This document shows, one piece after another, positions 5,123-55,681 of a stretch of 64,000 bases of DNA. The translations under genes were made by a program, and so were the position numbers. The DNA comes from Tubiluchus corallicola (taxonomy: Eukaryota; Animalia; Priapulida), in the NCBI GenBank assembly GCA_030141605.1, contig JAQGDQ010000297.1, positions 224,537 through 288,536 of the forward strand. The letters run 5' to 3'. Position 1 is the first letter of the stretch. Each line of letters begins with the position of its first letter. A model generated the notes under the pieces. It saw only the letters and a list, made by a program, of their open reading frames with translations. It was not told where the DNA came from and did not search any database.

Positions 5123-6432
5123 TTATTTGACACCATTTTGCCGCTTGTTTACCGTTTGAGGCATTTTGTAGTTAAAAATGTTGAAATCTGCCTGGTAGAG
5201 TTTAAGTAATTTTTGAAATCTCGCTGCATGTGTTTTTGAGACCAAGCTTTCCGCTAAGTGTCTGCTCCGTTCATTTTTGTTTGCTCTATCTGCAGGAAAT
5301 TTCAAATCTATTTCTAATCTTTCGAGGAGAAATTCTACATCTTCATCCATAGTCTCCCTCTTTCCAATGTACTGGTAATCTACAACACAAGGGTTACACA
5401 ACTTTTGGTAGCTCTCCCAATGGGGATTCAAATTGCCTCCTTTATCGACTGAAAGAGGGTCTTTTTTACGTGTTCTGTTATTTACCAAATAGGCAAGGAA
5501 TTTGTTAATTTTCATTGTTTCACTGTCAGTTGGTGCACCATTGATTGGTGCTAATTGTTCGTATGTCTTGTCAATATATTTTCTGTAATCTTTATATTTG
5601 CTCCGTGTTTTCTCGTCAATGATGTACTCGTCACCATTACCGCTTTTTGAGCGACTAGGAAAAACGGCATTAAATGAAGACATTATGCGTTCCAGTGGAT
5701 TACGGACGAACATAAACTTTGTATAAGTTCTCAAACGCTTCATTTGATCTTTAAATTCGTATTCACCAAGTCTTCTAAGGCCAGCCTCAGACAGGGATTT
5801 GGAATTGTGCACGTCAGAGTATGTAAGCTTGTCAATGTGACCAATGCCTTTTGCAGCTAACAAAACTCTCAGCCAGTTGCTGGTCATAGAATGAGGCGTA
5901 TAGCAGTACATTATCTTTAGTTCGTCGTCCACTAAAACATTTCTCAAGAATCGAACTCCAACATCGTAATTCCCTTTGTGTTTCAAACATTCTGTCATAG
6001 CATGGTGTCGGCGATGTCTGAAGCGTTCTTCGGGATTATTGGATTCCTGTTGGTGTTGTGTTTGTTTTTTATTTTGATTTGGCTGTTGTTGTTGTTGGTT
6101 TTTGTTTTTGCTTGTTTGTTGTTTTTGTTGGTTTTTATTTTTGTCTGATTGCTGTTTTTCCTGCTGGTTTTTATTTTGGTTTGGTTGTTGGTTTTGTTGA
6201 TTTTGGTTTTGATTTGACCGTTGTTTTTGCTGTTGATTTTTATTTTGGTTTTGATTTTTGTTCGATTGCTGATTGTTTTGATATTGGTTTGGATGCTGCT
6301 TTTGCTGGTTTTGGTTTTGACTTGATTGCTGTGGTTGTGTCTTATTTCGTGATGGAGTTGGTTCAACTGTAGTTGTCGTTTCGTCTTCTGATTCCCAGTT
6401 ATATTTGTCCTCCTTAAATACGGTAATATTTC
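5123..6432 (-). CDS. Terminal coding exon of a carbohydrate sulfotransferase (Sulfotransfer_2; CHST8-14/HNK-1ST-like) with Q/N-rich stem
   Basis: The frame of ORF 5123-5998 stays open upstream to an acceptor attttattccag|GA at 6432 (phase 1). Family motifs: VLVDDELKIMYCYTP..NW.R (5'-PSB region), KFMFVRNPLERIMS (3'-PB), HW..YQKLCNPC...Y.YIGK.ET..ED and LY.ADF.IFNY. The signal-anchor exon is upstream and uncertain. Confidence 0.9.
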
Positions 6433-6987
6433 CTGGAATAAAATAATATTAAGTGCAATAAGTAATCTAATAGCATGATACTTGATGATTATTCGTAATT
6501 ATTAACGAATTACGAATTATTAACGAAGTATTATTATGTTTAACAGCGTTTTTGATAATTACTACAAAGTTAATGATATTAAAGAAATTACAATAATGTC
6601 CGCTACGTTTTATTACTCAGCGGACATTACTTATTACTTACTAAACACGTATATTACTCAGCTACAAAGCAATATGTCTGTTGTCGTAATAGCCGACATA
6701 TCTTTCATTTTTAGTATTCTGAGCTGTTTTGATAATCTTAGATAATAATCCGATCATAATTGAACAGTTTACTGGGATCAGCCTGTAAGTTGTTGTAGAG
6801 CTTACAAAGTTGCCCTTTCAGTAACCGCTGGTGAGTTATTGGGTGAGTCCAATATTTCCAGTGTATATGCGTCTTGTTATAAATGAAAAATACAACCATA
6901 CAACATGGAAAAATGATGCAACATCTTTAAGCTCTTTAGCGCCATTTGCACAATTTAAAATTACGTGTTGCGCGCCTGATTTTGGTG

Positions 6988-22485: not shown

Positions 22486-22699
22486 CTGCAGCTGAATTTT
22501 CACTTGTTTGTTTTTCGTAATTAGGATTGTGCACGAGGGGAATAGTTTCATTCTGGTACAGTCTTGCGCAAGCCTGAGCGTCGCTGTTGTTGTCATGGCT
22601 ACTCCGTCTGCGCTGTTTTCTTAGCCAATAAAAGCGTACGAGAAGAGCGACCACCACCACTATCAAAATTGTGACTCCAATTGCTGCTCCGATGTAAAC
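22486..22699 (-). CDS. Trk: Trk transmembrane and juxtamembrane exon with NPxY
   Basis: tttttag|VYIGAAIGVTILIVVVVALLVRFYWLRKQRRR...PLVHNPNYEKQTSENSAA|gtttga; 214 nt, phase 0-1. Confidence 0.92.
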
Positions 22700-23511: not shown

Positions 23512-23618
23512 CGTAGCCTTGCCTTCTGGAGCCACAAGAGGTGGTGGCAAAGATGGATTTGTGTTAAAGTTCACATTTGCTGTGTTAAAATACGGCCGAA
23601 GTACGTTCTTAGGTGGTG
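23512..23618 (-). CDS. Trk: Trk extracellular juxtamembrane (Pro-rich) exon
   Basis: ttttag|(P)PPKNVLRPYFNTANVNFNTNPSLPPPLVAPEGKAT|gtaagt; 107 nt, phase 1-0, bridging the flanking exons exactly. Confidence 0.85.
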
Positions 23619-26109: not shown

Positions 26110-26307
26110 CTCGTTTAATCCAAGGCACCTCAAATGTTTTTAAGAAGGGAAACCGACAGGTGTCGCCACCGTTCCGGCGACGTTTGTTTTTATACCAAAT
26201 GATATTAACGTCTGAAGCCCGGTCTGTCTTTATTGTATACTCTATGCATATTCCACCGCATATGTTGCAAGGTGCTGGCTTACTAACAAATAGTATCTTT
26301 GGCGCAC
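26110..26307 (-). CDS. Trk: Trk Ig2 (d5) N-terminal half, variant B (putative mutually exclusive exon)
   Basis: tttttag|(G)APKILFVSKPAPCNICGGICIEYTIKTDRASDVNIIWYKNKRRRNGGDTCRFPFLKTFEVPWIKR(G)|gtgagt; 198 nt, phase 1-1, open frame. Confidence 0.82.
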
Positions 26308-26375
26308 CTAAAAATCGTACAAAATATACACAAAAACTGTTTACATGCAATTAACGCACATCTATGTTCTCTTAC

Positions 26376-26549
26376 CTTTGAAAGGTTCCTTAGAAGCAAT
26401 ACGGTGTATATAAGAATTATTGGGCATCAAGTAGGCGCTCTTGTACCATGTTATTATTGGATAGGGATTAGCCGCAATGGCGTATTCGGCGCACATGCCT
26501 TTGTAGAAACAGGTTGGCACGTGCTTCAGATACAGAATCACTGGGATGC
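26376..26549 (-). CDS. Trk: Trk Ig2 (d5) N-terminal half, variant A (putative mutually exclusive exon)
   Basis: tcttttcctattcag|(G)IPVILYLKHVPTCFYKGMCAEYAIAANPYPIITWYKSAYLMPNNSYIHRIASKEPFK(G)|gtaaga; 174 nt, phase 1-1, open frame. It resembles vertebrate d5 C..F.V.GNP.P.L.W. Not in the ORF track. Confidence 0.88.
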
Positions 26550-27809: not shown

Positions 27810-28079
27810 CCAAAACATTGAGTCGTACACTGGCAACACTTCTGCCCACAACATTCTCAGCAACGCAGACGAGGAAGCCATTGTCTTCAACGCTAACATT
27901 CTGCAGCTCAATTTCAGCCTGGACTGTCTTGTTGGACTCTGTGAAATATTCCACAGACAGATTTGAGGAGATCCAGAAGACCTTCGGTCGTGGCGACCCG
28001 GTGGCGGTACATACCACTCGAACGTCGTCCCCCGCTGTCACATTGATAACAGAGGGGGTGATGTCAGTCTTCGGGATAG
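27810..28079 (-). CDS. Trk: Trk Ig1 (d4) exon
   Basis: cttacag|(A)IPKTDITPSVINVTAGDDVRVVCTATGSPRPKVFW...LQNVSVEDNGFLVCVAENVVGRSVASVRLNVL(G)|gtaagt; 270 nt, phase 1-1. Confidence 0.95.
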
Positions 28080-29111: not shown

Positions 29112-29278
29112 CGCAACCGTATATATCGTAACTGAGTAGTTCGAACCGGCTGCTCCGATTTTTCGAATCGACGCAGGTGAGCTTGTCGACAATGTTGAAT
29201 AGTTCCGGATGATTCTGTGCCTTTAGCTGAAGCCATTTAATGCTACAATTGCATGGCAAAAAGTTGCCCTCCAGTTCT
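29112..29278 (-). CDS. Trk: Trk LRRCT cysteine-cluster exon
   Basis: tttcag|(L)ELEGNFLPCNCSIKWLQ...KLTCVDSKNRSSRFELLSYDIYGC|gtatgt; 167 nt, phase 2-1. Confidence 0.93.
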
Positions 29279-29442
29279 CTGAAACATCACAATGTTTTAT
29301 ACAAACAGCTTACCTTACAGAAAACATGTAACTGTACAGGCCTAAACTGTACCGAGGCAAGGGAGTGCTAATGCTAATGCTCAGCAGGTGAATTTGAGTT
29401 GAGACAGTGTCTGCTTGTCTTTGCGGGTTGGTACATTGGTCA

Positions 29443-29708
29443 AAACGCTGACCACTGTAAAGAGAGCCATTTAGGTTACACGTTGAAAGCACATGCTCAA
29501 AATGCTTCAAACGCTGATCACTATAAAGAAAGCCATTTAGGTTACACGTTGAATGCACATGCTCAAAATGCTTCAAACGCTGATCACTATAAAGAAAGCC
29601 ATTTAGGTTACACGTTGAATGCACATGCTCAAAATGCTTCAAACGCTGATCACTATAAAGAAAGCCATTTAGGTTACACGTTGAATGCACATGCTCAAAA
29701 TACTTCAA
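29443..29708. repeat. 66-bp minisatellite, ~4 copies
   Basis: aaacgctga recurs at 29443, 29509, 29575 and 29641; the copies are nearly identical. Confidence 0.95.
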
Positions 29709-29941
29709 TCAGATGCTTTAATCCTGTTTCTTATTGTTTACGAAATCCAATAAGACTTTTCTACGAATTTTATTAGACAGTTTTACTCATTCCAATTATA
29801 CGGTTAATTATATAAGTTATGCTTAGTAAAGCCGATAATTGCGAACGGCTGGCTGGCTGGCAAAATAACATAAGAACAAAAATATAGCCACCACCGAAAT
29901 GAATTATTATTTAAGTATAAATAAATTAAGAGAGAACTTAC

Positions 29942-54711: not shown

Positions 54712-55681
54712 CCGTAAAACGGGGTGAGTTCGCCACCCGAGGGTGAGTTCGCCACCCCTTACGTAAGGGCCATTGTAGGTTTGCTGTAACTATTGTTCAG
54801 TGTTTAATGAACAGATATCATGATCACCGTCATTATAAACAGTTTGGGACAGTTATCTTCTTTCAATTCGCACTAGAAGTATTCCATTCTGCGTTACATA
54901 TTATTTGTCTACTATTTCTTGCTACTTAACATGCCACGCACCTGCACCCCTGTACCGGGTCATAGATACCAAAATTATACCCCAGAAGCTCTGGAAGCTG
55001 CCCTACATGCCGTCAAGAATACCAACAGGACAATCAGCGCAGCGGCGAGGCAATTCGGAGTTCCAAGAAAGACCCTTTCTGACAAACTCTCAGGAAGTCA
55101 TCCGCGGAAGACCGGAGGTCAGCCAGTGTTCTCCGCCGCCGAGGAGCACGAAATCGCCAACACTCCAAGTGGCCGCTGAATGGGAGTTCCCAATGACTGC
55201 CATCGATCTCCGATTACTGACTAAGAGTGTTCTTGACGCGAAGGGAATCCAAGAACGACGATTCAAGGCAAACACCCCTGGAATAGACTTTGTTAAATCA
55301 TTCGCCCGAAGGAACAATCTGGTTTTCAGAGTGGCTGGCAACATCAAGGGCGCCCGCGAAAAGATCAGTGCACAAGACGTTCAAGCCTTCCTTGCCAACG
55401 TAGAAGTTTCTATTTGAAAACTAAAACTAGACATTTTTCATAATTTTTTCATAGGGTGGCGAACTCACCCCCAACCAGCCAATCACAACCAGTTAACTTC
55501 AGCTGCCTAGAATGGCATTAAAGAGTGTAAAATCGTTAATGGCGAATTCACCCCACGATAGTGTTTCATTCGAAAGGCAATATAAAGCTTGAACTAAGAA
55601 AATTGGTTTGGTAATTCTCTTGCTATGGCAGGAAACGTAAAAAATACCCCTAAAAAGTGGCGAACTCACCCCGTTTTACGG
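54712..55681 (+). mobile_element. pogo/Tigger-like (Tc1/mariner superfamily) internally deleted DNA transposon
   Basis: Perfect 25-bp TIR ccgtaaaacggggtgagttcgccac / gtggcgaactcaccccgttttacgg, TA TSDs (54710-54711, 55682-55683) and subterminal copies of the gggtgagttcgccac motif. Confidence 0.93.
54931..55417 (+). pseudogene. Truncated, frameshifted pogo-type transposase (psq-HTH + CENP-B-type HTH, no DDE domain)
   Basis: MPR...YTPEALEAALHAVK...ISAAARQFGVPRKTLSDKL...GGQPVFSAAEE, then a frameshift near 55160, then LQVAAEWEFPMT..DLR...PGIDFVKSFARRN..L. Confidence 0.88.

Follow-up and report, generated by a model that had tools for sequence, protein, structure and literature searches.

The Trk receptor gene analysed here, from the priapulid Tubiluchus corallicola, has two neighbouring exons (A and B) that each encode an N-terminal half of the second Ig domain (Ig2, or d5), and one exon (C) that encodes the C-terminal half. 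Does such a gene make one receptor or two and, if two, do they differ in the ligands that they recognise? We analysed the whole stretch of 64,000 nucleotides in which the gene lies (the window), and all coordinates are positions within it.

The Trk gene and its relatives

The gene lies on the minus strand, where 14 exons (33332-18051) give a single open frame that runs from LRRs through a Cys cluster, Ig1, d5, a Pro-rich stalk and a TM/NPxY segment to a tyrosine kinase (Table 1). In this in-frame model the ectodomain follows the Trk plan (LRR, Cys cluster, two Ig domains and one TM). The NPxY juxtamembrane site and the C-terminal Tyr motif are both present in the translation and align to those of relatives, and in PDB the first kinase exon has 27 matches at E<=1e-20, every one of them to TrkA, TrkB or TrkC. 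The kinase, the ectodomain plan, NPxY and the d5 homology considered below thus all agree with the Trk identity proposed in the preliminary description. Pfam gave no match for the short LRR exon pieces. A first coding exon, which would carry a signal peptide and N-terminal Cys cluster, could not be located in the 30 kb upstream of 33332; it is either too diverged or outside the window.

Table 1. Features of the Trk gene, as positions in the window
Feature	Position	Strand	Evidence and properties
Three LRR exons	33332-33258, 31605-31534, 30028-29942	minus	by eye, in-frame model; first matched by tblastn
C-terminal cysteine cluster (LRRCT-like) exon	29112-29278	minus	tblastn to Owenia/Centruroides/Solemya Trk; spliced X2 contig
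Ig1 (d4) exon	27810-28079	minus	Pfam I-set E 6.7e-13; upstream junction in X2 contig
Exon A, N-half of Trk d5 (Ig2)	26549-26376	minus	174 nt, phase 1-1, BC-loop prolines kept, 2 Cys
A-B intron, GT-AG	26375-26308	minus	68 nt
Exon B, second d5 N-half	26307-26110	minus	198 nt, phase 1-1, BC-loop prolines lost, 4 Cys, strongly basic
Exon C, single d5 C-half (rest of strand E, EF loop, F, G)	25643-25530	minus	profile scan, in-frame model, d5 model
Pro-rich extracellular juxtamembrane exon	23512-23618	minus	in-frame model, by eye
Transmembrane exon with NPxY motif	22486-22699	minus	in-frame model, alignment to relatives
Four tyrosine-kinase exons, C-terminal Tyr motif	21046-20749, 20472-20235, 19024-18866, 18236-18051	minus	Pfam PK_Tyr_Ser-Thr

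One contig among the 70,053 records of an RNA-like run (X2) matched the window, at the Cys-cluster and Ig1 exons only (85% and 80% likeness). In this contig (~91% identity) the Cys-cluster exon is followed directly by Ig1, with the junction where the model predicts it, which shows that a related animal splices the gene. Over 29112-29265, X2 and the window differ at 14 of 154 coding letters, and five of the seven changed codons listed are silent. Despite these differences X2 bears the same species label as a DNA-like run (X1, see below), and may come from a cryptic or mislabelled relative. Two peculiarities of the introns were also noted: the intron after the first kinase exon (20748-20473, minus strand) is GC-AG, the frame holding only with the GC donor; and at ~29440-29710, in the intron preceding the Cys-cluster exon, there are by eye about four tandem copies of a unit of ~66 nt.

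The closest of 10 homologues is a Trk of Priapulus caudatus (74% in the kinase), with a second Priapulus Trk at 63%. Seven of the 10 carry source names, of which five are Trk names and two unnamed or hypothetical. In a tree of 11 kinase pieces, which contained no non-Trk outgroups, the window gene and the two Priapulus Trks group at 97/98, and the window gene is sister to the first (74%) Priapulus Trk at 84/83. P. caudatus has two Trk paralogues (XP_014662367.1 and XP_014665565.1), so the lineage already has two Trk genes. The earlier proposal that a single Trk gene had diversified by exons rather than by duplication is therefore unfounded.

At the level of protein models, each Priapulus Trk holds one d5 N-half, whilst the window gene has two. 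The XP_014662367.1 model, the nearest to the window gene, begins just upstream of its d5 N-half with a repeat-like leader, and its kinase exons are disordered; the leader and the disorder suggest a gene misassembled or mispredicted precisely where a second exon would be. Isoform pairs of Centruroides (two) and Panulirus (one) differ outside d5. A profile search of 1.84 billion representatives was dominated by multi-Ig proteins, and of the 150 matches listed the only single-stretch ones were the two Priapulus proteins used for training.

Anatomy and age of exons A and B

A and B are sited between the Ig1 exon (end 27810) and the C-half exon (start 25643). Both have lengths that are multiples of 3 and no stop, AG precedes and GT follows each, and each has a split Gly codon at its start and at its end. 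The preliminary description of two open, mutually homologous phase 1-1 exons that end on the same split Gly therefore stands, on the minus strand and with AG/GT flanks, as does its statement that the domain has a single C-terminal half: two HMM scans of the window revealed neither a third d5 N-half copy nor a second C-half exon. The splice sites had also been called strong. The donors (GTAAGA for A, GTGAGT for B) are both of the ordinary GT-AG type, and in a matrix trained on the gene the B donor has the top score of all the gene's donors; the A acceptor, however, is among the weaker ones, with 9.8% of AGs scoring as high.

When the splice matrices were trained on the gene's other exons and the thresholds set at the weaker of the A and B scores, so that A and B pass by construction, no other open symmetric stretch of 150-240 nt passed on either strand of the 64 kb. 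GC content is 0.43 in both exons, which is exon-like, versus 0.35 in intron; codon usage parts A and B poorly from intron, with 7-8% of 255 intron windows scoring equally high. A single X1 contig (368 nt, 2 differences) runs from the last part of A through the intron to the far end of B. The tandem arrangement is thus not a join error, although X1 may be the source sample.

At the protein level, 14 of the first 39 residues of A and B are identical (BLASTP E 3e-4), and their alignment score was matched by 1 of 5000 shuffles. The d5 N-halves of the two Priapulus Trks are likewise matched by A and by B (in all four comparisons, 0-1 of 5000 shuffles did as well), which supports the d5 homology claimed for the pair. 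DNA similarity between A and B is undetectable, the local score being reached by 1455 of 2000 shuffles. Across 55 aligned codons, identity at codon positions 1, 2 and 3 is 0.51, 0.53 and 0.29, the excess at positions 1-2 being partly an effect of aligning on protein; different codons are used for 14 of the 19 residues common to both exons, and silent sites between them are saturated.

In a neutral simulation run to the observed amino acid distance (d=0.5, 36% identity), none of 5000 runs with indels left exon B open with its splice sites intact, and 1.2% did so without indels; with indels, survival was 25% at d=0.05 and 0.4% at d=0.2. Saturated silent sites together with intact frames and splice sites argue that A and B have both long been under selection, as had been suggested, and the simulation supports this. 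On this sequence evidence, A and B are old tandem duplicates of the d5 N-half that were selected for most of their history. Given the fast neutral decay in the simulation, a loss of B would be possible only if it were very recent.

In a tree, A and B cluster at 77% bootstrap, with none of four alternatives rejected by the AU test. An independent d5 profile, made from eight further Trks, gave 20.1 bits for A and 6.7 bits (E 1.3) for B. Compared with Trk d5, exon B has a 2-residue insertion in the BC loop, and both the BC-loop prolines (GxPxP) and the hydrophobic residues after the Trp strand are gone. It has 13 K/R versus 5 D/E and includes a basic run that presumably resembles a convertase site. 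Exon A alone matched TrkB d5 at E 0.6 only, and exon B alone gave no TrkB d5 match. Homologue searches using exon A and the Ig1 exon found no homologues, and an ESM Atlas search with exon B reached a best score of 0.84, which is at most a lead.

The part of d5 predicted to be exchanged

A profile made from the Priapulus d5 with A, B and C matches the d5 of TrkC (E 2.4e-12), TrkB (5.3e-12) and TrkA (1.1e-9), these being the best single-domain matches, with multi-Ig proteins ranking higher by summed score. In an AlphaFold model of one Priapulus d5 (pLDDT 79, five-row alignment), strands run over residues 4-9, 19-26, 32-37, 52-58, 61-68, 77-85 and 88-96. The exon junction is at residue 64-65, inside the strand at 61-68, and exon C starts at 65. 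With the modelled strands named by Ig topology, A or B would give strands A-D and half of E, and C would give the EF loop, F and G.

The ABED face makes up the specificity patch of TrkA, whose conserved patch consists of the AB, C'D and above all EF loops (PMC6353895; bioRxiv 10.1101/2025.02.27.640519). With the junction inside strand E, a swap would alter most of the predicted specificity face and retain the most conserved contact, the EF loop. By homology to TrkA, the swapped exon is thus predicted to encode the ligand-specificity surface.

Two Cys lie near strand B in A, B and both Priapulus Trks, and the position of the TrkC strand-E Cys is taken by an aromatic residue (Tyr/Phe) in the Priapulus Trks as in the window gene. 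The second Cys of this priapulid-type d5 sits 5-7 residues before the strand-B Cys. The two-Cys pattern was seen in none of six other invertebrate d5 N-halves, and from these residues priapulid-type d5 appears to have rewired its disulfide. Exon B has extra Cys, one in the AB region and one in the C'D region; both are at the same end of d5 and could pair as a second disulfide. A complex prediction for exon B with exon C scored 0.27, where the mark was 0.34.

Probable exon choice and possible ligand choice

We consider it probable that A and B are used mutually exclusively, each mRNA keeping one. The exons adjoin, are similar in sequence and length, share the same frame and contain no stop, which are the features given in PMC5740500 for mutually exclusive exons (MXEs) that arose as tandem duplicates. 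The A-B intron is the shortest of the 13 in the model, the other 12 being 276-1911 nt. By the pattern used, its only branch-like motif lies 25 nt from the A donor, such motifs being an imprecise guide (they occur within 70 nt of 11 of the 14 acceptors). Under the steric-interference criterion of <50 nt that was used for human exons (PMC5740500), this makes steric exclusion plausible; C. elegans excises introns down to ~40 nt (PMC4165533), so an intron of 68 nt is spliceable in some animals. Transcripts with A only, B only, A+B or neither are all in frame, and thus NMD cannot enforce exclusion. A search for docking/selector pairing gave nothing convincing: there were 67 inverted-repeat pairs, with none prominent among the 25 listed.

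We envisage that an intron had already split d5 inside strand E and that the N-half exon was then duplicated in tandem, long ago. The distance in the short intron from the A donor to the branch point would be too small for A to be joined to B, and Ig1 would be spliced to one of these two exons, which in turn would be joined to C. Two receptors would result, with different predicted ligand-selecting sheets and with the EF loop, membrane span and kinase common to both. The A form would be the canonical neurotrophin receptor; the B form would have been remodelled, its loops having changed and a basic patch and perhaps a second disulfide being present.

Other uses of the exons have to be weighed against this. 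A could be constitutive and B a formerly functional or slowly decayed exon that is now skipped or spliced as noise. The lost prolines and hydrophobic residues of B, its insertion and its poor fit to the independent d5 profile would suit such a history, and neither Priapulus gene model has two copies, though one of them is broken just upstream; yet the frame, length and both splice sites of B are intact despite the saturated silent sites, so only a very recent loss fits, and its donor is the strongest in the gene. The single X1 variant in B is silent, which as one site has negligible weight. We regard decay of B as unlikely. More unlikely still, in our judgement, is that A and B are both included, or that B is a cassette after A, so that d5 would be lengthened by a second copy of one half, or the ectodomain would be extended or have swapped strands. 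Such transcripts would keep the frame, the A-B intron is bounded by canonical GT-AG and is rich in pyrimidines towards its 3' end, and animals of the C. elegans type remove shorter introns (PMC4165533), but with one C-half only, one half-Ig would be left without partner strands; moreover, the gene's other introns are at least 276 nt and the branch-like motif is very near the A donor. An assembly artefact or a chance open frame is barely conceivable: A and B have no DNA similarity and hence are not a collapsed or duplicated haplotype, the X1 contig runs across A, intron and B, and no other stretch passes the exon filter.

Even with mutually exclusive use, which we prefer, the B form might have no other ligand and might instead be ligand-blind, matrix-binding or cleavable, tuning signalling. 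This we hold to be possible, though short of probable. Its excess of basic residues, the convertase-like run and loops that are off the Trk consensus all point that way, and one ancestral neurotrophin is usual per bilaterian, so that a second ligand may not exist (PMC7535936). Against this, the core pattern of strands is retained in B, as is the Cys pair of the lineage, with the extra Cys of B at the same end of d5 and perhaps paired, and some invertebrates, such as sea urchin, have two neurotrophins (PMC2772990). A true ligand switch between the A and B forms is on present evidence somewhat doubtful; if the exons are indeed exclusive, the odds are roughly even between such a switch and a B form that is blind to ligand or otherwise tuned. 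Such a switch, in the style of FGFR, would have exclusive exons swapping the d5 specificity face with the EF loop fixed, and, in addition to Trk gene duplication, would yield two receptors for different neurotrophins or for one neurotrophin and one ligand of another class. We put this model forward only tentatively.

In vertebrate FGFR1-3, exons IIIb and IIIc are mutually exclusive and switch the ligand, the swapped part being the C-half of Ig III. The window Trk is alike in being an RTK with tandem homologous exons for half of a membrane-proximal ligand-binding Ig, the other half being shared; it differs in belonging to another receptor family and in swapping the N-half of d5, not the C-half. 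Both exclusion and ligand switching are proven for FGFR, whereas for the window Trk both are proposals. In Dscam there are duplicated half-Ig exon clusters for the N-half of an Ig domain, one exon being used at a time. Dscam, an adhesion receptor, has RNA docking sites and its variants number in the tens, in contrast to the pair of exons in the window Trk, for which no docking site was found. FGFR1-3 are listed among MXE genes in PMC5740500, and the sizes of the Dscam exon clusters are given in PMC4165533.

Another parallel is the choice between exons 5B and 5A of C. elegans egl-15 (FGFR), which likewise involves an ecdysozoan RTK ectodomain, two exons of 3n length and a short intervening intron, by which the egl-15 exons are kept exclusive (PMC4165533). 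There the intron is 14 nt and clearly unspliceable, compared with 68 nt in the window Trk, and the two exons are barely homologous (10% amino acid identity) and encode an insert (PMC4165533), unlike the half of a ligand-binding Ig encoded here. Within the Trk family, the mini-exon 9 of vertebrate TrkA encodes a 6-residue cassette that alters ligand preference (TrkA-I/II; PMC2772990). This is like the window Trk in that splicing bears on ligand choice, putatively so in the window Trk; the TrkA cassette is outside d5 and the exchange in the window Trk within it. The d5 of vertebrates and amphioxus is a single exon and that of Daphnia is split over two, as in the window gene, and the account of Daphnia Trk in the same paper describes no duplicated d5 exon (PMC2772990). 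A split d5, as in Daphnia, would be a precondition for duplication of the N-half, a match in intron position between the two genes not being implied. A full-text literature search, covering mainly open-access papers, turned up no Trk in which d5 exons are duplicated, and neither did a search by word through the paper on Platynereis Trk (PMC4812194). A mutually exclusive half-Ig switch, known from FGFR, thus seems to be undescribed in the Trk family.

In vertebrates, the choice of ligand by Trk receptors is believed to have diversified as a single ancestral receptor and its ligand gave rise to more by gene duplication (PMC7535936). If the proposed switch is true, it would be the first of its kind in the Trk family and a second route to Trk diversification, in an early-branching ecdysozoan, and would hint at more than one ligand or signalling mode in the lineage. 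It would also be a natural experiment on the determinants of Trk ligand choice, and the two isoforms would be at hand for comparing how the surfaces of d5 confer specificity. Splicing on this principle is already well known from FGFR and Dscam, which limits the surprise.

Elsewhere in the window, a long single ORF of the Sulfotransfer_2 family with a Gln/Asn-rich stem lies downstream of the Trk gene on the same strand (5126-6448, minus; Pfam E 4.8e-34). On the plus strand, at 54839-55414, there is a frameshifted HTH_psq fragment (E 1.8e-7) that is likely to be a decayed DNA transposon.
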